This document shows, piece by piece, positions 1 to 30,307 of a stretch of DNA of 64,000 bases. Position numbers and translations under genes: made by a program. The notes beneath the pieces were generated by a model, which did no database searches, was not told where the DNA came from, and worked only from the letters and a program-made list of their open reading frames with translations. The stretch comes from a bacterium (GTDB taxonomy: Bacteria; Patescibacteriota; UBA1384; CAILIB01), in the NCBI GenBank assembly GCA_037131105.1, contig JBAXRQ010000001.1, positions 458,263-522,262 on the forward strand, written 5' to 3'. Position 1 is the stretch's first letter. Each line of letters starts with the position of its first letter.

Positions 1-550
1 GTCTTTCCCTGGCGTACAGTCCAGGATCGATAGCATGATAGAGCGGACTGTCTTTCCTGGTGATGGCACGGCTGCGAGACCAATGCCGCATGATCTGGTG
101 ACGGCTGTCAGGGTCATCAAAGGCCTTGCCAAATCCCGCTGGAGTCAACAGGAGGGATTCTGCCTTCTCTGTCTGAAACCTTCTCATTATGCAGTTGATG
201 AGGAGGTTCAGGGTTCGACGCGGGTTTGAGGACTGTCGCTGAGGAAGTCGCTTCGCTATTTCGGCCAGCAGCTCGTCTGCTTTTTGATAGCTTATTAACG
301 TGGTGACGACTTGCCGTATGTGCCCTCTATTCAAAAGAAAAAGGCATATTCCGGTTGCGTCGCGAAACGAAATATCCTGCGCATTGAGCGCTCCTCGTGG
401 TCTTTCACATACGAACCAGGCACGTCTCTTTAGTTTTTCATCCACGGCCCACTCCTTCTCTGCCTCATGGCATTTCTGTTGGCAAGCACCATTGCTTGCA
501 GATTGGACGGTACAGAAAGTGCCATGATCTGTCAATCGCTGTGCGCCCTT
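1..550 (-). CDS. Partial CDS of unknown function; its C-terminus lies beyond the window start. Minus-strand reading frame open for about 183 codons from position 550 down to 1.
   Basis: I checked the plus-strand triplets at positions 2,5,8,... up to 550 by hand and found no tta/cta/tca, so the minus frame has no stop. The stop that opens the frame is TGA, read as complement 553-551. Candidate starts are TTG at 535, GTG at 445 or ATG at 187. The ORF track omits it because there is no stop within the window. It conflicts with the short plus-strand ORFs at 35-229 and 300-527. Confidence 0.35.
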
Positions 551-603
551 TCATGTTGGCTGCTGGCACTATATAATAAGCTCAAGCTAACCAAAGGAGG
601 GGG
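549..603 (+). promoter_or_regulatory. Putative promoter and RBS of the transketolase operon. Proposed -35 is TTTCAT at 549-554, a 17-nt spacer, -10 TATAAT at 572-577, and RBS AAAGGAGG at 594-601 ahead of a GTG start at 606.
   Basis: Motifs read directly from the sequence. The spacing fits a sigma70-type promoter, and the strong Shine-Dalgarno sits 5 nt before the GTG. Confidence 0.4.
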
Positions 604-605
604 AC

Positions 606-1478
606 GTGACTACCAAGCAACTGGAGCTTCGGGCTCTGGCTATCCGTGAGGATATTATTACGATGCTTCAGGAGGCAGGATCCGGCCATACTGCCGGACC
701 TTTGGGGATGGCAGACGTCTATGCTGCTTTGTATTTCCATGTACTCCACCACGATCCTAAAAACACTGAGCTGCCTGACCGCGACCGCTTGGTCCTTTCC
801 TGCGGTCACACCTGTCCTGTACGGTATGCGGCAATGGCCGAGGCCGGCTACTTCCCCCGTAAGGAACTGTTGACCCTGCGCAAACTGGGAACCCGCTTAC
901 AAGGTCATCCCCACAACCTCACCCTTCCTGGTACTGAGACCTCCTCTGGTCCCCTTGGACAGGGACTTTCTCAGGCTGTCGGCATGGCCCTGGCCGCCCG
1001 TATGGACAAGGAAAAATGGAGAACCTACGCCATAGTTAGCGACGGTGAGCATCAGGAAGGCCAGATCTGGGAGGCCGTCATGTTCGCCGGAAATCGTGGG
1101 CTAGGAAACCTTACCGCCATTCTTGATCGCAACTATATCCAGATCGACGGTCCTACTGAGACGGTGATGCCGCTGGAGCCTTTGGCGGATAAGTACCGTG
1201 CTTTCAACTGGCATGTCATTGAGGTAGACGGACATAACATTCCTCAGATCATCGAGGCCTGCGACCAGGCCAAGGCGGTGGCAGACCGGCCTACCATGAT
1301 TATTGCCCATACCATCCCCGGCAAAGGTGTGGACTATATGGAGTACGACTTCCATTGGCATGGCGCCCCTCCCGGAATCTCTGACATCGCCGGGTCACCA
1401 CCTAAGGAGCAGCAGGCCAAGATCGCCCTGGCAGAGCTTCGTACCCTCAAGCGCACCATAATGAGCGAACATGAGTAA
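606..1478 (+). CDS. tkt: Transketolase, N-terminal (TPP-binding) subunit; split tkt.
   Basis: 290 aa. Contains GSGHTAGPLGMADV, the GHT..P motif and GDGE..EGQIWEA, typical of the transketolase N-terminal section. GTG start. Overlaps the next ORF by 8 nt. Confidence 0.9.
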   Translation: MTTKQLELRALAIREDIITMLQEAGSGHTAGPLGMADVYAALYFHVLHHDPKNTELPDRDRLVLSCGHTCPVRYAAMAEAGYFPRKELLTLRKLGTRLQGHPHNLTLPGTETSSGPLGQGLSQAVGMALAARMDKEKWRTYAIVSDGEHQEGQIWEAVMFAGNRGLGNLTAILDRNYIQIDGPTETVMPLEPLADKYRAFNWHVIEVDGHNIPQIIEACDQAKAVADRPTMIIAHTIPGKGVDYMEYDFHWHGAPPGISDIAGSPPKEQQAKIALAELRTLKRTIMSEHE

Positions 1479-2448
1479 TACCGTAGTCCCTTGGACCAAG
1501 AAATTGGATGAGCCGGAGATGCTGCCTACCCGCAACGGGTTTGGTGAAGGGCTAGTTGAGGCTGGTAAAGATCGTAACGTGGTTGCGCTCTGTGCTGATC
1601 TGACTGAGTCTATTCGTATCGAGGCTTTTGCAAAAGCATACCCAGAGCAGTTTGTAGAGATAGGGGTGGCCGAGCAGAATATGATGGGTATAGCCGCTGG
1701 CTTGGCACTTTCCGGGAAAATTCCCTTTGTCGCCAGTTATGCTGTCTTTAACCCCGGCCGCAACTGGGATCAGCTGCGCGTCTCAGTCGCTTATTCCCAG
1801 GCTAACGTAAAGGTCATTGGCGCCCATGCCGGCCTTTCGGTCGGTCCTGACGGGGCTACCCACCAGGCTTTGGAGGATATTGCTATTACCCGGGTGCTGC
1901 CCGGCCTTGTAGTCATAGCTCCCACCGACATCCACGAGGCCCGCAAGGTGGTCAAGGCCGTGGTTGACTACAAAGGGCCGGTTTATATTCGTTTCGGGCG
2001 TGACAAGGTACCTACGATCACTACCGCGGATACTCCCTTTGTCATCGGCAAGGCTAATCTCTTCAGAGCTGGCAAGGACATTACTATCTGTGCTAACGGC
2101 GCCATTGTCTACGAAGCCTTGAAAGCTGCCGAAATGCTGGCCAAAAAGAAGATCTCTGCCGAAGTGTTGGCAGTGCCTACCATAAAGCCTCTAGATGAAA
2201 CGGCCATTCTTAGCTCGGTTAAAAAAACTGGAGGCATGGTCACGGCCGAGGAAGCCCAGATAAACGGGGGGTTGGGCAGTGCCATCGCTGAGCTACTAGG
2301 AGAGAAGCATCCTGTGCCCATGGAACGTATAGGAGTGAAGGATACTTTTGGTGAGTCAGGTACAGCCGGCGAACTGATGGACAGGTATGGCCTGCGCTCC
2401 ACCGATATCTATGAAGCAGCGCTCAGGGTCGTAGCTCGTAAGTCTTAA
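1471..2448 (+). CDS. tkt: Transketolase, C-terminal (pyrimidine-binding plus C-terminal domain) subunit.
   Basis: 325 aa. Contains VEIGVAEQNMMGIAAGLA and FGESG, typical of the transketolase C-terminal section. Translationally coupled to the N-terminal subunit. Confidence 0.9.
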   Translation: MSNTVVPWTKKLDEPEMLPTRNGFGEGLVEAGKDRNVVALCADLTESIRIEAFAKAYPEQFVEIGVAEQNMMGIAAGLALSGKIPFVASYAVFNPGRNWDQLRVSVAYSQANVKVIGAHAGLSVGPDGATHQALEDIAITRVLPGLVVIAPTDIHEARKVVKAVVDYKGPVYIRFGRDKVPTITTADTPFVIGKANLFRAGKDITICANGAIVYEALKAAEMLAKKKISAEVLAVPTIKPLDETAILSSVKKTGGMVTAEEAQINGGLGSAIAELLGEKHPVPMERIGVKDTFGESGTAGELMDRYGLRSTDIYEAALRVVARKS

Positions 2449-2450
2449 GT

Positions 2451-3221
2451 ATGCTGCTTCCCGTTACCACCCTTCTGGCTAGGTCTCGTCGCGCCAAGCG
2501 CCTAGCACCCTATATCCAGGTCTCGACTCTTGAAGTCCTGGAAGGGGCTCTCCTTGCAGCGCGTCAGGAAAAACGGGATGTCATCATTGAGCTGAACCTG
2601 GAAAAAGCCACTCTTGACCATGTGGTCTTTGTGGCCACGGCTACTTCGCTCTGTGCCAGTCATCCGTCGGCGGTTGGATTGGTCCTGGCGGTACGGGCGC
2701 ATGCATCGGAGATTGAGATGGTACTGCGTCTAGGGGTACCGTCTATTCGCCCGGTATTTCCCAAAGACACGTCGCTGCCAGAACGGACCGAGTTCATCGC
2801 TTGGTTTACCAGTCAGGCCAGCCAGTACGGCATAGAGGTCGGCGCCAGCTTCTCAAGGGTGATGGGTGGAGATGAAGTACGTCACCTCTGCGACTCATCT
2901 AGTGCCTCATTTGTCGTTATGCCGGTTCGAGAAGAACAGAGAAGTCGCCGTACCTTGGTGCCGGCTGCCCTCAAGGACCTCGGGAGAGGGGCTACCGTGC
3001 CTGTGGTGGCCGATGAGGAGATGCTTACCAGTCTCCACCTGACGTCGCTACGCAAGGCAGGAATCTGCGGTCTTTTTCTGGGTGAGACCCTTGAGAAGTC
3101 CTATACTGCAGGGGTACGGGCTGGACTACGTGACCGTATGGTCACTGACCCTTCCAGCTATCAGAGAAAGGGAATGCTTGCCGTCAAGAACACCGTTATC
3201 CATTACCTACAAGCCGCTTAA
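2451..3221 (+). CDS. Class II (FbaA/GatY-like) aldolase-fold protein with degenerate metal-binding residues; possible pseudo-enzyme.
   Basis: 256 aa. From memory it aligns along its length with class II fructose/tagatose-bisphosphate aldolases, for example KAGICGLFLGETL against KLGICKINVATEL. The HLDHG, GxAHG and LHGxSG histidine positions read VLAVRAH, VMPVREEQ and VVADEEM. Confidence 0.45.
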   Translation: MLLPVTTLLARSRRAKRLAPYIQVSTLEVLEGALLAARQEKRDVIIELNLEKATLDHVVFVATATSLCASHPSAVGLVLAVRAHASEIEMVLRLGVPSIRPVFPKDTSLPERTEFIAWFTSQASQYGIEVGASFSRVMGGDEVRHLCDSSSASFVVMPVREEQRSRRTLVPAALKDLGRGATVPVVADEEMLTSLHLTSLRKAGICGLFLGETLEKSYTAGVRAGLRDRMVTDPSSYQRKGMLAVKNTVIHYLQAA

Positions 3222-3230
3222 CCGCACAGT

Positions 3231-4244
3231 ATGTTTGACATGATATCTATCGGCGACACCATGCAGGACGTTTTCCTGGAGATGGACCCCGCCAATGCGC
3301 ACCTGCACACCTTCCGCAAGGAGTCTGAGGAACTTTGTTTTACCTTTGCCGATAAGATCCCGGTTAAGGCCAAGCATGACCTTATCGGGGGTAACTCGGC
3401 CAATGCTGCCGTGGCTTTCGCCCGGCTTGGCTTCAAGACCGGCTTTTATACCCATGTGGGTGATGACGAGCAGGGAAAGCGACTTATTGCCGACCTGAAG
3501 GGCAATGATGTGCATGACGACTATATCGTCGTAGATGAGGGTAAGGAGTCGAATTACAACACGGTGATAAACCTTGAGGCCGAGCGCACTATCCTTATCT
3601 ACCATGTCCACCGTCACTTCGTACTACCAAAGCTTGAAGCTGCCAAGTGGATCTACCTTTCTTCGATGGGGGAGGGATTTGAGAAGATTTTCCCTGATCT
3701 TATTAAGTATGTCGACGAGCACAAGGTGAACCTTTGCTACCAGCCGGGGACCTTCCAGCTCAAATACGGCGCTGAGAAGACCAAGGCACTTCTTGAGAAG
3801 ACTAAGATCTTCTTCGTCAACAAGGAGGAGGCCGAGCTCTATACTGGTATTCCTAAGACCGATAACTTCCGTAAGCTACTTGACGGTATTTTGAAAATGG
3901 GTCCGGAGATCGTGGTGATCACTGACGGACGCATGGGCGCTTACGTCTCTGACGGCCGGGAATATCTCTGGCTGGGTATCATTGAAAAGGCTCCACGCGT
4001 TGAGGCTACGGGGTGTGGTGACAGCTTCTCATCTGCTTTTGCCGCGGCTATGGCTTCTGGGGAGACTCTGGCCGAAGCTCTACGTTGGGGCCAGTGCGAG
4101 GCAAGCTCGGTGATCGGGAAGATTGGTCCTCAGCCGGGTCTCCTGTTCAATAAGCAGATCAAGCACCTCCTGGATGAATATCCCCAGCTCCAGGCAGTCT
4201 CCCTGGACGAGAACGGCCGCCCGATCAATGGGCATAACGTCTAG
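3231..4244 (+). CDS. PfkB-family carbohydrate or nucleoside kinase (ribokinase-like).
   Basis: 337 aa. C-terminal ATGCGDSFSSAFAAAMASG...LRWGQCEASSVIGKIG matches the PfkB anion-hole/GD motif. N-terminal substrate-lid region is present. Confidence 0.7.
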   Translation: MFDMISIGDTMQDVFLEMDPANAHLHTFRKESEELCFTFADKIPVKAKHDLIGGNSANAAVAFARLGFKTGFYTHVGDDEQGKRLIADLKGNDVHDDYIVVDEGKESNYNTVINLEAERTILIYHVHRHFVLPKLEAAKWIYLSSMGEGFEKIFPDLIKYVDEHKVNLCYQPGTFQLKYGAEKTKALLEKTKIFFVNKEEAELYTGIPKTDNFRKLLDGILKMGPEIVVITDGRMGAYVSDGREYLWLGIIEKAPRVEATGCGDSFSSAFAAAMASGETLAEALRWGQCEASSVIGKIGPQPGLLFNKQIKHLLDEYPQLQAVSLDENGRPINGHNV

Positions 4245-4249
4245 AGTCT

Positions 4250-5218
4250 ATGGCGCGGCCACGTATAGTAGTCACCAGGGCGATACCTGAGAGCGGCATC
4301 AAGCTGCTTGAACAAGACTTTGATGTGCAGGTGTATAGGGGGGAGGGAGTGATGGATAAGGCTCAGCTGTGTGAGTTTGTGAAAGGAGCTGAGGTTATCG
4401 TTAGTCTACTTACCGATCCTATCGATGGCGAGGTACTGGACGCGGCAGGTCCTCAGCTAAAGGCGGTAGCTCAGTATACGGTAGGGTATGACAATATTGA
4501 CCTGGAAGCAGCTAAGGCGCGATCTGTGATAGTGACTCATACTGCCGGCACCTTATCGGCCACAGCGGTGGCTGAACTGGCACTGGGCGGATTGCTGGCA
4601 GTTGCACGTCATACCGTGCAGGCAGATGCGTATATGCGGTCTGGTGCTTATAAGTATTGGGACCCGAGTATTTTTCTTGGTCAGCAGCTGACGGGAAAGA
4701 CGGTAGGTATCATTGGTACTGGTCAGATAGGCTCTTTGTTCGCCACCATGTGCCACCATGTCTTCAGGGCGAAGATACTGTATACCGATATGGTCTCGAA
4801 TCTCTCACTAGAAAAATCCTTGGGAGCGATGAAGGTGTCCAAAGAAGAGTTACTTGCTCGTGCTGATGTAGTATCGCTTCATGTGCCACTGCTTGCTAGC
4901 ACTCGTCATCTTATTGGTGAAGGGGAGCTGCAGCAGATGAAGAAAACAGCCATTTTGATCAATACATCCAGAGGACCAGTAGTAGATGAGGGCGCCCTAG
5001 TGCGCGCATTGCAGAACCGCGAGATATTCGGTGCCTGCTTAGACGTGTACGAATCCGAGCCTGACCCTGCCGAAGGACTTGCGGCTTTGGACAATGTGGT
5101 GCTAACTCCTCATATTGCCTCTGCCACTGAGACTACTCGTACGGCCATGGCAGAGTGTGTAGTTCGTAATATCAAGGCGGTTCTTGCTGGTGAAACCCCT
5201 CCCGACCTTGTCAGGTAA
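4250..5218 (+). CDS. D-isomer-specific 2-hydroxyacid dehydrogenase (glyoxylate/hydroxypyruvate reductase or glycerate dehydrogenase-like).
   Basis: 322 aa. Has the GIIGTGQIGSLFA Rossmann motif, LHVPL...TRHLIGEGEL, and a catalytic R-E-H arrangement (INTSRG...; TPHIAS). Confidence 0.8.
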   Translation: MARPRIVVTRAIPESGIKLLEQDFDVQVYRGEGVMDKAQLCEFVKGAEVIVSLLTDPIDGEVLDAAGPQLKAVAQYTVGYDNIDLEAAKARSVIVTHTAGTLSATAVAELALGGLLAVARHTVQADAYMRSGAYKYWDPSIFLGQQLTGKTVGIIGTGQIGSLFATMCHHVFRAKILYTDMVSNLSLEKSLGAMKVSKEELLARADVVSLHVPLLASTRHLIGEGELQQMKKTAILINTSRGPVVDEGALVRALQNREIFGACLDVYESEPDPAEGLAALDNVVLTPHIASATETTRTAMAECVVRNIKAVLAGETPPDLVR

Positions 5219-5259
5219 TGACTCAAATTAGTAGTTACGGTAGCTTTAAATAGTATGTT

Positions 5260-5316
5260 CCAATCTGTTGTCAATCCGCCAATCTGTTGACAGGTGGGGC
5301 ATAGATTGGCAATAAT
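5260..5316 (+). promoter_or_regulatory. Promoter with repeated operator-like motifs upstream of the small ORF at 5369. Two direct repeats of CCAATCTGTTG(T/A)CA at 5260-5273 and 5279-5292, an inverted partial copy AGATTGG at 5303-5309, -35 TTGACA at 5287-5292, and an A/T-rich -10 at 5310-5316.
   Basis: Repeats and the TTGACA box read directly. The second repeat contains the -35 hexamer. RBS AGGAG at 5359-5363 lies before the ATG at 5369. Confidence 0.45.
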
Positions 5317-5368
5317 CAAGCCACTAAACCAGTAACCGTCCGCCATCTGGCGGAAGAACAGGAGCATA

Positions 5369-5572
5369 ATGGCATTCGCCTACAAGAACTCCAAGGATCA
5401 GGAATACTTCCTGCACTCCAAGGAAGTTACCCTGAAGGGTGGTCGCAAGCAGGTAATTTATTACTTCGCTCGCGCCATCAACGCTGAGTTCGCTCTTGAC
5501 GCTGTTCCCGCTGACCGTATGGTCTCCGAGAACCCTCGCACCGGTTTGCCTCTTCTGAAGAAGAAGGCCTAG
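5369..5572 (+). CDS. Small, basic, conserved-looking protein of unknown function (67 aa), likely highly expressed.
   Basis: AGGAG RBS 5 nt upstream. Own promoter with repeats. Followed by two consecutive hairpins, the second with a U-tract. No family recognised from memory. Confidence 0.55.
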   Translation: MAFAYKNSKDQEYFLHSKEVTLKGGRKQVIYYFARAINAEFALDAVPADRMVSENPRTGLPLLKKKA

Positions 5573-5575
5573 TAC

Positions 5576-5619
5576 TTCTCTCTGCGAGAGAAAAAGAGAG
5601 TCTTCGGACTCTCTTTTTC
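5576..5619 (+). terminator. Tandem stem-loops forming a rho-independent terminator.
   Basis: First hairpin TTCTCTCtgcGAGAGAA at 5576-5592. Second hairpin AGAGAGTCttcgGACTCTCT at 5595-5614, followed by TTTTT. Confidence 0.7.
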
Positions 5620-5677
5620 GTGGTATCACCCTGGTAGTGGGTTTTGGGATGCCTGCGCACTCTGCTACACTGGTGAC

Positions 5678-7141
5678 ATGAAACGCTCAGAGCTCTTCTT
5701 TTCGGTGTTGCTGATCCCGGTAGACTATCTGGCCCTATTGGTGGCCTTTCTTCTTTCCTATGTACTGCGGGACAGCTTCTCGCCAGTTTCTCCTACAAAT
5801 CTTGCCGGAGTGGCTGACCGACTTCAGTACAATCCTGATACGGCCCTGGTCATCTCTCAGTCTCAATATCTGCACTACCTGTATTTTATTATTCCAGGGA
5901 TGCTGGTGGCATTTGCCTTGGTCGGTCTTTACGGTATCAGAGTCAATTACTCCTGGTTTACCCGGGCCTTGCGCATATTGATAGGGGTTTCCGTAGGGGA
6001 GTGCTTTATTCTGTTGTTGTTTCTGTTGAGGAAGGACTTCTTTCTGCCTCGCTCAACGGTGCTGTATAGCTGGGCGCTGGGAACACTATTTGTCATAGCT
6101 GCTAGGCTGATAGTACTTGGAGCACAACGCTTTCTCTATAGGTTCAATATAGGCGCGGTACGCGTGGCCGTAGTGGGTGACGATAAGGCTGCCAAGCGGG
6201 TAGGGGAGCAGTTGGGGAAGGGAAAGGCCGCCTCCTATCGGTTGGTACGTCAGTTTGCCAGCCTGCCTGTCGCCCAACTTGCCCGACACGTCACCCGAGA
6301 GGAGATGGATCAGCTGGTAGTCGCAAGCGGCAGCTACTCAAACGATGATCTGATCGAGCTTCGCAGCATTTGTCTTGAAGCCCATGTTGCCTTTAGCTTT
6401 GTGCCTTCATTGCTTTCGGCATTGCAGAGCAGTAGTTTTACTGTGCAAAATATTGCCGACGTCCCCATGATTGAGGTAAGTCCCACGCCTCTTGAGGGAT
6501 GGGGGAGAGTACTCAAGCGTCTTTCCGACCTCATCGGTGGTACGCTGCTGCTGATTTTATTCTCACCGCTCATGCTGCTTGTGGCTATTTCCATTAAGCT
6601 ACTTTCACCGGGTCCCCTGATATACCGTCACAGGCGCCTCGGTCGTAACGGTACGGAGATTAAGGTCTGGAAGTTCCGTAGTATGTATTGGAAATACTGC
6701 ACGGGGGTAGGTACCGACGGCGACCGGAGTTTTGAAGAGCTGCTGGCTACTGACCCCAAGCTGGCTATTGAGTGGGAGCAGAGCCATAAGCTGAAGAACG
6801 ATCCTCGTATAAGCATCCCTGGAAGATTCCTGCGACGTACCAGCCTTGATGAGCTCCCCCAGCTGTTCAATGTCCTGTCGGGCTCGCTCAGCTTGGTCGG
6901 TCCCCGGCCAATCGTGGAAGAGGAGATCCGTAAGTACGGCAAGTACGCAGGCCTGCTGTTCTCGGTCCGACCGGGTATGACCGGTCTTTGGCAGATTAGC
7001 GGACGTAATGACACTACCTATATCGAGCGAGTCGGGCTGGATGTTACATATATTGAGCATTGGAACCTGCTTCGCGATATAGGGATTATGCTTCGCACTA
7101 TTTTGGTGCTGGTGGGACCGCGCAAGGACGGGGCTTATTAA
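5678..7141 (+). CDS. Undecaprenyl-phosphate sugar phosphotransferase (WbaP/WcaJ-type bacterial sugar transferase) with N-terminal TM segments.
   Basis: 487 aa. C-terminal domain has PGMTGLWQISGRND and LSLVGPRP, hallmark motifs of the bacterial sugar-transferase family. Hydrophobic N-terminus. Confidence 0.85.
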   Translation: MKRSELFFSVLLIPVDYLALLVAFLLSYVLRDSFSPVSPTNLAGVADRLQYNPDTALVISQSQYLHYLYFIIPGMLVAFALVGLYGIRVNYSWFTRALRILIGVSVGECFILLLFLLRKDFFLPRSTVLYSWALGTLFVIAARLIVLGAQRFLYRFNIGAVRVAVVGDDKAAKRVGEQLGKGKAASYRLVRQFASLPVAQLARHVTREEMDQLVVASGSYSNDDLIELRSICLEAHVAFSFVPSLLSALQSSSFTVQNIADVPMIEVSPTPLEGWGRVLKRLSDLIGGTLLLILFSPLMLLVAISIKLLSPGPLIYRHRRLGRNGTEIKVWKFRSMYWKYCTGVGTDGDRSFEELLATDPKLAIEWEQSHKLKNDPRISIPGRFLRRTSLDELPQLFNVLSGSLSLVGPRPIVEEEIRKYGKYAGLLFSVRPGMTGLWQISGRNDTTYIERVGLDVTYIEHWNLLRDIGIMLRTILVLVGPRKDGAY

Positions 7142-8307: not shown

Positions 8308-10443
<2,136 letters not shown>

Positions 10444-26065: not shown

Positions 26066-28165
26066 ATGCCTCGAGAATACCCCTTAGAAAAAGTACGCAA
26101 CATCGGCATCATTGCCCACATCGACGCCGGTAAGACCACGACTACCGAGCGAGTCTTGTACTATACCGGAAAGGTGCACAAGATCGGCGAGGTGCACGAA
26201 GGTGAAGCCACCATGGACTGGATGGAGCAGGAGCAGGAACGTGGTATTACCATCACCGCTGCCGCCACCACCGCGTTCTGGGCCCCTTCATACCGTCCTA
26301 AGGACATGTATCGCCTGAACATCATTGATACACCAGGCCACGTAGACTTCACCGTCGAAGTGCAGCGCTCGCTGCGCGTTCTGGACGGAGGTGTAGTTGT
26401 TTTTGACGGTGTAGCAGGCGTAGAGCCCCAGTCAGAGACGGTTTGGCGTCAGGCTGATGAGTATAAGGTTCCCCGAATCTGTTTCATCAACAAGCTGGAC
26501 CGTATGGGTGCCGACTTCATGAAGGCCTACCAGTCCATCCTTGACCGCCTGACCCCTAACGCAATCCCAGTTCAGCTGCCTATCGGTACTGAGTCTGATT
26601 TCAAGGGTATCATCGACCTTCTGACCGGCATCACCTACATCTACAAGGATGACATGGGTAAGGAAGTAGACGAGATCGAGGTACCCGCCGAGTACAAGGA
26701 ACAGTATGAGGATTCGCGTACCAAGCTTATCGAGAAGATCGCTGAGCAGGATGACGCCCTGATGGAGAAGTTCTTCGCCGGCGAGGAGCTTACCTTAGAA
26801 GAGCTGCGCTTCGGTATCCGCAAGGGCGCTTTGACCGGCTCCCTGGTTCCTGTACTTTGCGGATCTGCTCTGAAGAACAAGGGGGTGCAGTTCATGCTTG
26901 ATGCCGTCATCGAATACCTTCCTTCACCTATCGACATCCCACCGGTAACCGGCACTGATCCAAAGACCGAGGAGCCTATTATTCGTGAGACCAACGACGA
27001 GGCGCCTTTCTCAGCCTTGGCTTTCAAGATCGCTTCGGATCCGTTCGTGGGTAAGCTTTGTTTCTTCCGGGTCTACTCTGGAAACCTGAAATCCGGCTCG
27101 TACGTATATAACTCGAGCAAGGGCCAGCAGGAGCGTATCGGACGTATCGTTCGTCTGCACGCCAACCACCGCGAAGACGTAGATCAGGTGTTTGCCGGTG
27201 AGATCGCTGCTGCTATCGGTTTGAAGAGCACTACTACCGGTGACACTCTCTGTGACCAGGCCAAGCCGATCAAGCTGGAGACCATCAACTTTGCTGACCC
27301 TGTGATCCAGCAGTCTATCGAGCCTAAGACCAAGGCCGACCAGGAGAAGATGGGCGTCGCTCTTTCCCGCCTGGCTGAAGAAGATCCTACCTTCCGTATG
27401 AGCACCAACCAGGAGACCGGCCAGACTCTGATCGCCGGTATGGGTGAGCTTCACCTTGAGATCATCGTTGACCGTATGAAGCGGGAGTTCAAGGTTGAGG
27501 CAAACGTAGGCCAGCCTCAGGTTGCCTATAAGGAGGCAATCCGCAACGCCGTTAAGGACGTAGAGGGTAAGTTTGTACGCCAGACCGGTGGCCGCGGTCA
27601 GTTCGGTCACGTCGTTATCAATATGGAGCCAGGAGAGCGGGGGACCGGCTATGAGTTCGTCAACAGCGTTGTCGGCGGTATTATTCCCAAGGAATACATC
27701 AAGTCCATCGACGAAGGCATCAAGGAAGCCCTTGATCGCGGCGTACTGGCCGGCTATCCGGTACTAGATGTCAAAGTTACACTCTTTGATGGTAGTTATC
27801 ACGATGTTGACTCCTCAGAAATGGCCTTCAAGATTGCCGGCAGCATGGCCGCCCAGGAGGGTGTGAAGCGAGCCAACCCTGTCATCATGGAACCTATCAT
27901 GAAGGTTGAGATCGTCACTCCTGAAGAGTACTTTGGTGACGTCATGGGCGATATTAACGGTCGCCGCGGACAGATCCAGGGTACCTCAGAGCGCGGCATG
28001 GCCAAGGTCATCGACGCCGACGTTCCGCTTTCCAACATGTTCGGCTACGCAACCACCCTGCGCTCAACCAGCCAGGGCCGTGCCTCCTATACTATGGAGT
28101 TCTCCCACTATGCCGAAGTCCCAAGCAATATTCAGCAGCAGATCATTGAGGGAAAGATAAAATAG
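26066..28165 (+). CDS. fusA: Elongation factor G.
   Basis: 699 aa. [12 protein letters not shown] and DTPGHVDF G-domain motifs, plus domains II-V. Confidence 0.97.
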
Positions 28166-28275: not shown

Positions 28276-28968
28276 ATGGAGGTAGTACCCTATACTATTC
28301 GAGAACACTCGGGATATATCATTCATGACACTCCTCCAGAGCGGGGACTGCCGATTCGTAGACTTCAGAGTGAAGGTGGAGAGGTGCTCTCTACCAATGA
28401 GCTACTGCAGATAGCCCTGGGCAACGTCGATGGGATGGAGGAGGGGGTGAGGGAGTACGGCTCCCAGTTCCTTACTACTCTCCATAGTGTGAATGATATA
28501 GTTGAGTCACTCCATACTGACCATCTCCAGGCAACACGTTTATTAGCGATTCTGGCCCTTGGGAAGAGGTTGTACGCTGCTGAGCAAGGTTCGATGGCAC
28601 ATATCAGAGGTATCGAAGATATTTACCACCATTATCGGTCAATGTCTCAGTTGGCTAAGGAGCAGCTGCGGGTAGCCCTGATAAATAGTCGCTACCAGCT
28701 TGTCCATGAGGATACCCTGGCCATAGGTAGTGTCGAATATATGCACATAAGCCCTAGGGACGTGTTCCAGGCGGCTGTTGAGAGGAGGGTTACGGCTATT
28801 GTCTTGGTCCATAATCACCCTAGTGGGGACGCCACCCCTAGTCAGAGCGACAAGGAGTTTACCCAGGAGATTATGGCTGCTGGCAAGCTGCTCGGAATAG
28901 CGCTGCTTGACCATGTAATCATTGGAAGAGAGGGGTACGGCAGCTGTTTGGGGTCCGAAGAACACTAG
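28276..28968 (+). CDS. radC: RadC-family JAB/MPN-domain protein (UPF0758).
   Basis: 230 aa. Contains the JAMM-like motif HNHPSGDATPSQSD...LLDHVII. The N-terminal region is HhH-like. Confidence 0.8.
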   Translation: MEVVPYTIREHSGYIIHDTPPERGLPIRRLQSEGGEVLSTNELLQIALGNVDGMEEGVREYGSQFLTTLHSVNDIVESLHTDHLQATRLLAILALGKRLYAAEQGSMAHIRGIEDIYHHYRSMSQLAKEQLRVALINSRYQLVHEDTLAIGSVEYMHISPRDVFQAAVERRVTAIVLVHNHPSGDATPSQSDKEFTQEIMAAGKLLGIALLDHVIIGREGYGSCLGSEEH

Positions 28969-28993: not shown

Positions 28994-29022
28994 TTGACAA
29001 GGGTAGTCTCTTTCAGTATAGT
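28994..29022 (+). promoter_or_regulatory. Near-consensus sigma70-type promoter upstream of tuf. TTGACA at 28994-28999, a 17-nt spacer, TATAGT at 29017-29022.
   Basis: Hexamers and spacing read directly. RBS AAAGGAG at 29115-29121 lies before the tuf ATG. Confidence 0.6.

Positions 29023-29128: not shown

Positions 29129-30307
<1,179 letters not shown>

Follow-up and report, generated by a model that had tools for sequence, protein, structure and literature searches.

A small stand-alone gene of a Patescibacteriota bacterium with a conserved expression cassette encodes a candidate nucleic-acid-binding protein of an unnamed family

The window analysed here, a 64,000-nt (64-kb) stretch of the forward strand of a Patescibacteriota genome (assembly GCA_037131105.1, contig JBAXRQ010000001.1, positions 458,263 to 522,262), carries close to its start a small gene for a 67-residue protein, which is a genuine monocistronic gene with its own promoter, ribosome-binding site and terminator-like hairpin (Table 1). 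We are highly confident that this small gene is real and has the expression design described below, and we give about an even chance to the reading as a whole, in which a very highly expressed gene yields an abundant nucleic-acid-binding product. The leading hypothesis is that the product belongs, as a variant of unrelated fold, to the class of abundant small nucleic-acid-binding proteins; its function is not established. The protein, whose exact match at NCBI is MEI6477847.1 ("hypothetical protein WCO52_02570 [bacterium]", encoded on a contig of 949 kb), contains 12 Lys or Arg residues against seven Asp or Glu (net charge of about +5), and both its basic character and the stand-alone nature of its gene, with a strong promoter of its own, agree with the initial annotation of this DNA. 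An antisense open reading frame (ORF; 5324-5629, 101 aa) overlaps the gene and was dismissed as a mechanical listing artefact, because it is the plus-strand frame that over 1,000 homologues have conserved.

Three independent lines of evidence read from the sequence, namely the promoter, the codon usage and a conserved expression cassette, argue that the small gene is highly expressed, as had been claimed initially. The promoter scan returned TTGACA and AATAAT separated by an 18-nt spacer, with 11 of 12 matches to the sigma-70-type consensus, and all features of that type (TTGACA, a spacer of 16-18 nt, and a TATAAT-like hexamer with A at its second and T at its sixth position) are present by sequence. 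Only three promoters in the 64 kb reach 11/12, those of the small gene, rpoB (17641) and tuf (28994), and both hexamers of the small gene are kept in 12 relatives; transcription is predicted from the promoter position to start near 5323. As for codon usage, the small gene has a codon adaptation index (CAI) of 0.856 and ranks first among the 73 genes of the window, ahead of tuf (0.825), in a stretch that holds EF-Tu and about 30 ribosomal-protein genes (str, S10, spc and alpha clusters); the codon weights rest on the window's genes for ribosomal proteins, tuf and fusA, with the small gene excluded. As for the cassette, 12 relatives from the clade of the window keep all of it: the extended -35, the -10 block, the ribosome-binding region and a GC-rich, terminator-like stem that has a T run. 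In the proposed mechanism, the near-consensus housekeeping promoter, with its extended -35 and conserved -10 region, would drive very high and probably largely constitutive expression, to which an upstream AATCTG-type element two helical turns away may contribute; a short leader would then present a conserved stem-loop directly ahead of an A-rich tract, with a strong AGGAG after it, and optimal codons throughout as well as a strong hairpin terminator would complete the design.

Table 1. Features of the small gene and its signals in the window, and acidic ORFs found at related loci
Feature	Position	Strand	Remarks
Distal direct-repeat copy CCAATCTGTTGTCA	5260-5273	+	about -63 to -50 from the predicted transcription start
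Proximal direct-repeat copy CCAATCTGTTGACA	5279-5292	+	contains the -35 TTGACA
Extended -35 block CTGTTGACAGG	5284-5294	+	conserved in the clade
-35 hexamer TTGACA	5287-5292	+	from the promoter scan
Inverted half-copy AGATTGGC	5303-5310	+	abuts the -10; pairs with GCCAATCT at 5278-5285
-10 hexamer AATAAT	5311-5316	+	followed by conserved CAAGCC (block to 5322)
5'-untranslated stem-loop TCCGCC, loop ATCT, GGCGGA	5339-5354	+	in the RNAfold minimum-energy structure
Shine-Dalgarno AGGAG	5360-5364	+	4 nt before ATG; preceded by conserved AAGAAC
Coding sequence	5369-5572	+	67 aa, basic, predicted all-beta
Minor hairpin TTCTCTC-TGC-GAGAGAA	5576-5592	+	7 bp; not conserved in relatives
Terminator-like hairpin	5590-5602/5607-5619	+	perfect 13-bp stem, UUCG loop; A-tract arm pairs with U-tract arm
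Acidic ORF, locus L169	1833-1985
Acidic ORF, locus L171	2991-3173
Acidic ORF, locus L172	2918-3079
Acidic ORF, locus L173	3902-4042
Acidic ORF, locus L174	2920-3072

The -35 hexamer lies within the second of two direct repeats of 14 nt each, 19 bp from start to start, and an inverted half-copy is found against the -10, which bears out what had been noticed at first. The arrangement is partly conserved: for 9 of 12 clade relatives, reading by eye showed a 5' core of the distal repeat (AATCT, AACCT, GATCT or ACTCT) that lies upstream of the proximal copy by about 19-20 bp, and the GATTGG-like inverted block, which in the clade reads GATTGG(C/T)AATAATCAAGCC, is also kept in relatives. All 11 clade genomes scanned have the extended -35 block, with one mismatch or none, and, apart from one intragenic chance match, it occurs only at the small gene in 181 kb of their DNA. 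The repeat pattern with up to two mismatches had no second site in the 64-kb window, the 14-nt repeat and its 11-nt core gave no other convincing copy there, and a regulon search with repeat, core and extended -35 gave no convincing second site in the window or the 181 kb; the repeats are therefore gene-specific rather than ubiquitous, ubiquity being what the initial annotation had named as grounds against its own claim. A shuffle control over the whole window is weak for the repeat (expected count 0.48), and its specificity rests better on the adjacency of the two copies and the recurrence of the arrangement in relatives. In three genomes the direct copies share at least seven identical bases, yet they differ between genomes, with the shared core reading CCAATCTG in the window, TGATCTG in L004 and CTACTCTG in L009 (L and P numbers denote loci and proteins, respectively), which amounts to a concerted change.

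That the small gene is regulated through these repeats is unproven; the scan found no further motif copies in the window or the related DNA, nor was a regulator gene found nearby. One form of such control would be a sequence-specific DNA-binding autoregulator, with the protein itself reading three CCAATCT half-sites, two direct and one inverted, in its own promoter. Half-sites that overlap the -35 and abut the -10 occupy classic repressor positions, the motif is unique to the small gene in the 181 kb of related DNA, and the two direct copies change in concert between genomes. However, the protein is near-invariant while the 5' parts of the repeats vary, a pattern that a fixed DNA-reading surface would not give, and the inverted copy does not co-vary with the direct ones. 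Moreover, no known DNA-binding transcription-factor family or solved fold was matched, and the top CAI together with conservation across phyla despite quite different promoters fits an abundant general protein better, so that autoregulation is considered very improbable. LexA was also considered as a regulator and set aside, as its only hint is a divergent lexA in one Saccharibacteria group and the window promoter has no such neighbour. As a separate observation, the distal repeat reads TTGACA on the minus strand at 5268-5273, and a weak TATTTA follows at a distance of 16 nt; as no minus-strand gene lies upstream, a promoter in divergent or antisense direction is conceivable there but unsupported.

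Downstream of the promoter, 14 nt separate the leader hairpin from the start codon. All 12 clade members have a hairpin whose end lies 10-16 nt ahead of this codon, against 14 of 166 control genes (8.4%) of the same genomes, and the clade stems differ in sequence but stay complementary (CCGCC/GGCGG, CCAC/GTGG, CACC/GGTG, CCACG/CGTGG, CTAC/GTAG and TCAC/GTGA). Distant loci, mostly of Paceibacterota, show a similar order, with a hairpin ending 12-18 nt before the start, an A-rich tract and GGAG, and in L080 the stem (TTCCGCC-aca-GGCGGAA) is almost identical to that of the window. The strong AGGAG Shine-Dalgarno sequence noted at first is present, and the ribosome-binding region AAGAACAGGAG is conserved in the clade. 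No leader family was recognised by Rfam over 5200-5700, where the sole match (E 5.1, 13.9 bits) lies on the minus strand. The leaders of ompA, B. subtilis aprE and the STAB-SD type likewise carry a short GC stem-loop near the transcript 5' end followed by a strong ribosome-binding site, and the window leader resembles stabilising 5' stem-loops in that structure rather than sequence is conserved; unlike known stabilising stem-loops, which lie at +1, the window hairpin starts about 16 nt from the predicted start. By analogy with such stem-loops of abundant bacterial mRNAs, the leader hairpin most likely stabilises the mRNA or enhances translation.

At the other end of the gene, the double terminator described initially is correct in that two hairpins follow the stop codon, but they overlap by 3 nt rather than being consecutive, and only the larger is conserved. 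Because these 3 nt are shared, both hairpins cannot form fully, and RNAfold keeps the large one and reduces the small one to 4 bp (z = -2.85 over the 75 nt folded). At each of the 13 clade loci examined, a comparable GC stem is accompanied by a T run, of 5-8 T in the relatives, and these relatives carry a single terminator made of A-tract, GC stem and T-tract. The consensus terminator scan made no call in the window because the T run sits within the 3' arm of the stem, where a U5 run is found.

The initial annotation had called for a homologue search, and a large family came to light. A word-indexed search returned 187 relatives of 65-75 aa, all unnamed, of which the best 120 are 57-96% identical to the window protein, and a profile search of 1.84 billion cluster representatives gave 1,207 matches at E<=1e-3 and 453 at E<=1e-10, so that the family comprises at least 1,207 clusters at 50% identity. 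Among species-representative genomes, copies with 54-78% identity are present in Saccharibacteria, Peregrinibacteria/Peribacteria, Kazan, Microgenomates, Chisholmbacteria, Paceibacterota and Chloroflexota/Dehalococcoidia, and a Berkelbacteria copy is deposited as UniRef A0A0G0LF84. A plasmid collection gave no match, and a profile scan of metagenome contigs yielded few close relatives; the loci of close relatives used here were taken from exact-protein look-ups. Clade-specific signatures, such as TLKNGR...ETKRT(N/G)MPVLK in Paceibacterota and TLRNGR...GENQRTGLPFLSKA in Chloroflexota, suggest that descent was mainly vertical.

Between pairs of genomes the small protein is 75-88% identical, compared with 73-81% for GyrB, GyrA and IF-2 and 40-76% for the metabolic neighbours, which indicates that the constraint on it is very strong, at the level of gyrase. 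From one candidate phylum to another, identity still amounts to 55-78%. Fourteen positions (Y13, L15, H16, V20, G24, G25, I30, F33, P47, E54, T58, G59, L60 and L63) are invariant in an alignment of 43 sequences.

The AlphaFold2 model built from the family alignment has a predicted local distance difference test score (pLDDT) of 93.8 and a predicted template modelling score (pTM) of 0.73, with modelled strands at residues 4-6, 12-21, 27-34, 50-54 and 61-65 and no helix. The predicted fold thus consists of five strands, including a long beta hairpin tipped by an invariant K-G-G-R, with many conserved aromatic residues. A Foldseek search found no related fold among solved structures in the PDB, and the only genuine structural match came from BFVD, with an uncharacterised Siphoviridae protein of 78 aa (template modelling score 0.74). 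That no known family could be assigned, as first stated, holds across every resource used: the window protein matched nothing in Pfam (at E<=10), NCBIfam, PHROGs or PADLOC, Pfam on 129 diverse members gave scattered chance matches only and no cold-shock domain (CSD), and PDB sequence profiles built from alignments A1 and A3 gave chance matches only (E>=0.13). In addition, no described homologue was found in the literature on Saccharibacteria proteomics, ribosome cryo-electron microscopy of the candidate phyla radiation (CPR) and Shedu sensor domains.

Several known families were compared one by one. The WW domain (PF00397), the commonest of the chance matches, matched 5 of the 129 members with a best E of 0.16, which is insignificant, and its signature Trp positions are not conserved; the comparison with PRPF40A (PDB 2l5f) gave a whole-sequence E of 0.13 over stretches of 20-24 residues with per-stretch E values of 38 and 52, and these matches arise from the GxxYYLH hairpin. 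All named copies are called "hypothetical" except P0111, which carries the Joint Genome Institute label "YHS domain"; YHS (PF04945) had no Pfam match at E<=1 in the 129 other members, and the label probably stems from the chance string Y-L-H-S. There is no Pfam match to HU/IHF (PF00216), for which a helical body is expected and the model has no helix, and the window protein matches none of the ribosomal-protein profiles.

The archaeal 7-kDa chromatin proteins Sso7d/Sac7d and Cren7 are basic, all-beta, very abundant and lineage-restricted architectural DNA binders of about 60-65 aa. The window protein has their small size, basic charge and all-beta build in common; in the search for Sso7d, Cren7 and SH3-like relatives, neither an SH3-like barrel nor a family profile was matched. 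Another parallel is Veg of B. subtilis (PF06257), a small stand-alone gene with a very strong housekeeping promoter whose product is poorly understood in function. Veg differs in that the window protein has no Pfam match and no match to any solved structure; a local resemblance in sequence (LTLKANGGRRK against VTLKGGRKQ) may exist.

Like the window protein, CspA-type cold-shock proteins have about 67-70 residues, five beta strands and no cofactor, and like the small gene their genes are among the most expressed and codon-adapted, monocistronic, and provided with a structured 5' untranslated region. Nevertheless, the CSD (PF00313) gave no profile match, and neither RNP1/RNP2 motifs nor an OB-fold match were found. 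The idea that the family replaces cold-shock proteins in CPR organisms is not supported, because the CPR transcriptomes include expressed cspA/B/C genes (PMC9938205). The CSD is one of the N-terminal domains present on Shedu nucleases (10.1101/2023.08.10.552793). The sPC4/Whirly/Pur-alpha-like sensor domains of Shedu proteins are beta-rich and occupy the same N-terminal place as the family domain of P0212, but the window model has no helix after the sheet and therefore lacks the beta-beta-beta-beta-alpha unit of these domains, and the Foldseek match to Borrelia Pur-alpha is not significant (probability 0.18-0.30 over 31-33 columns).

Evidence for function comes from the company that the domain keeps. 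Among the best 150 representatives, 18 are long proteins. The domain is N-terminal in P0212, a Shedu SduA nuclease, and C-terminal in P0151, a KAP/QatA-like NTPase, and in P0254, a DUF4365+TIR protein; two copies are joined to TRM13-type CCCH zinc fingers in P0143, tandem copies with K/R-rich linkers occur in P0145, P0148 and P0267, and P0193 is a TPR fusion. Ala/Lys/Pro-rich C-terminal tails, carried by P0162, one of the long proteins, and by the shorter proteins P0124 and P0238, are what we take to be histone-H1-like. Conserved Tyr, Phe and His residues lie on the strands of the protein. According to a previous study, the N-terminal domains of Shedu proteins are diverse sensor or regulatory domains, many of them nucleic-acid-binding (10.1101/2023.08.10.552793). 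A homologue (40% identity, E 1e-8) is also encoded in phage genome MW202692.1, about 1.9 kb downstream, on the same strand, of clustered genes for a nucleotidyltransferase, an ATP-dependent DNA ligase and a polynucleotide kinase. Two further fusion proteins, P0202 and P0210, possess an N-terminal helical domain with RNRLAH(T/D)(F/Y), which resembles the Rx4H motif of HEPN/DUF86 RNases; Pfam gave no match and so did not confirm it.

Because of the fusions, the tails, the Shedu and phage context, the basic charge and the aromatic-rich strands, nucleic-acid binding is the best-supported function, and we rate the chance that the small protein binds nucleic acid at slightly below even. It would then be an abundant binder without sequence specificity, serving as an architectural protein or a chaperone on DNA or RNA, and defence proteins and phages may have taken over the same domain as a module that binds or senses nucleic acids. 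Some points weigh against this: the fusions are few, and the end domains of defence proteins can respond to proteins or small molecules as well; the role of the hairpin in mRNA stability is drawn by analogy only; the neighbours in other phyla, described below, are of redox type and not nucleic-acid genes; and conservation at the level of GyrB exceeds that of a typical non-specific nucleoid protein and would be in keeping with a partner like RNA polymerase or the ribosome. The data do not clearly separate the nucleoid-, stress- and ribosome-associated roles that had been suggested at first; the domain fusions favour nucleic-acid binding, and nothing found points directly to a ribosomal or stress role.

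The phage and defence associations can also be read differently: instead of serving the cell as a core component, the protein would be an accessory that is mobile, derived from phages or linked to defence, for instance a sensor decoy or an anti-defence factor. Homologues or fold matches in phages and the fusions to Shedu, KAP/QatA-like and TIR effectors would agree with this. Nonetheless, synteny is stable within the clade, the clade-specific signatures fit vertical descent, the gene has the best-adapted codon usage in the window, and the family is spread over many CPR lineages. In PADLOC and PHROGs, the stand-alone protein falls in no family and only the fusion partners (QatA/KAP, TIR and SduA) find a match. 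An accessory of this kind is hardly credible.

Ribosome association ranks second after nucleic-acid binding, though it is unlikely. Here the product would be a lineage-specific ribosomal protein or a ribosome-associated factor, for example in hibernation or assembly, expressed at the level of ribosomal proteins and kept under constraint by its rRNA contacts. The protein is of small size and basic charge, its gene has the top CAI of the window, in which the str, S10, spc and alpha clusters are also found, and its conservation equals or exceeds that of GyrB and IF-2; furthermore, CPR ribosomes are described as being without some universal proteins and biogenesis factors (PMC12641178). On the other hand, the gene lies about 20 kb from the ribosomal-protein clusters, beside sugar-metabolism and cell-envelope genes, there is no ribosomal Pfam match, and the family also occurs in Chloroflexota. 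Tandem copies, H1-like tails, fusions to Shedu, KAP and TIR, and phage copies are likewise unusual for ribosomal proteins, while RNA binding would fit this reading as well as an abundant nucleic-acid binder.

In the clade of the window, the small gene follows rpiB, rpe, gap, tktN, tktC, an aldolase-like gene, pfkB and a 2-hydroxyacid/lactate dehydrogenase gene (missing in some relatives) and precedes Bac_transf, a glycosyltransferase gene, gyrB, gyrA and infB. The genes upstream of it in Paceibacterota and Microgenomates are DsbA-like and, for a membrane protein, RskA_C-like, those downstream are FeS_assembly_P (DUF59), rpiB and rpe, and an AhpC/TSA peroxiredoxin gene is upstream in Kazan and some Saccharibacteria, with a divergent C_GCAxxG_C_C redox gene or lexA elsewhere. 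As the gene retains signals of its own in all these settings, little can be concluded from the neighbours about its function.

Such neighbours raise the alternative of a stress- or redox-linked small protein, whose promoter repeats would be operators of a stress regulator. The recurrent peroxiredoxin, C_GCAxxG_C_C, FeS_assembly_P and DsbA-like genes speak for it, as do the RskA_C-like protein, which is of anti-sigma type, in Paceibacterota and Microgenomates, the divergent lexA in one Saccharibacteria group, and the conserved promoter elements beyond the two hexamers. However, cysteine is missing from the window protein, in which no metal- or redox-active motif could be recognised either, the gene comes with a promoter and a terminator of its own in every case, and the synteny varies between phyla, the neighbours in the window clade being pentose-phosphate, glycolysis and glycosyltransferase genes. 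In addition, the consensus housekeeping promoter and the top CAI point to constitutive abundance, and no regulon is visible, with no second motif copy in the window or the 181 kb. A stress or redox role is therefore judged distinctly unlikely.

Previous metatranscriptomes of ultra-small bacteria showed that 75-93% of expression falls outside any functional category and that most highly expressed genes have no predicted function (PMC9938205), and the small gene is a concrete and tractable example of such a highly expressed, functionally unassigned gene. What is new here is the leader hairpin, the CAI rank, the gyrase-level conservation, and an unnamed family spread across many candidate phyla without a solved structural relative. 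More broadly, we tentatively suggest that the family is an unrecognised core protein of Patescibacteria, very abundant, chromatin-like or an RNA chaperone, with a fold unseen in solved structures, which would form part of the "highly expressed but unannotated" transcript pool and whose domain would double as the nucleic-acid sensor of some Shedu, KAP and TIR defence proteins. If a new abundant nucleic-acid-binding fold is indeed at hand, a basic component would be added to CPR cell biology and an unannotated module of defence proteins would be explained. As a soluble protein of 67 residues, it should be easy to express, to test for binding to DNA, RNA or ribosomes, and to solve by nuclear magnetic resonance or crystallography. 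The conserved cassette of promoter, leader hairpin and ribosome-binding site could also serve Saccharibacteria genetics as a strong expression part.

Further observations concern the surroundings of the small gene. It is found near the pentose-phosphate genes rpiB-rpe and a DsbA-like gene both in Paceibacterota (L054, 22-4771) and in the window clade (1-5572), on opposite sides of the cluster, and this shared placement hints at an old gene order across candidate phyla. Inside the tkt-pfkB sugar cluster of the window, an ORF of 256 aa (2451-3221, plus strand) has a sub-threshold match to class-II aldolase (E 5e-4); it is 22-27% identical between relatives, compared with 50-76% for the flanking genes, which makes it an unusually fast-evolving member of a conserved cluster. 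Relatives also carry a stand-alone, very acidic ORF of 46-60 aa between xseB and rpiB, followed by a terminator-like hairpin, which is poorly conserved and has no Pfam match; the window begins downstream of this position.

Elsewhere in the window, rpoB, rpoC and the str, S10, spc and alpha ribosomal-protein clusters lie at about 17.8-45.9 kb. A RadC-like JAB-domain gene (PF04002, E 7e-34; 28276-28968, plus strand) stands between fusA (26066-28165) and tuf (29129-30307) and breaks the usual order of the str operon, tuf having its own 11/12 promoter at 28994. Over the 64 kb, no tRNA gene, no Rfam family at gathering score and no ribosomal-protein leader motif was detected.

Among the relatives, one Saccharibacteria group (L005, at about 2805-2820; L006-L008 and L026-L030) has the homologue divergent from lexA and a tRNA gene after its terminator. 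The region between homologue and lexA holds CGAACATAATACGAAC, a GAAC-N7-GAAC direct repeat, which we take to resemble the direct-repeat LexA boxes of Alphaproteobacteria. In L043, a metagenome-assembled genome labelled Verrucomicrobiota, four tandem 19-nt units (tagcgggcaacctgcttcg) lie upstream of the homologue at about 2840-2925, beside a run of N. Finally, gyrB of L172 (12914-16291) encodes 1,125 aa with an intein (PF14890, Intein_splicing), and gyrB of the window (8341-10443) encodes 700 aa without one.

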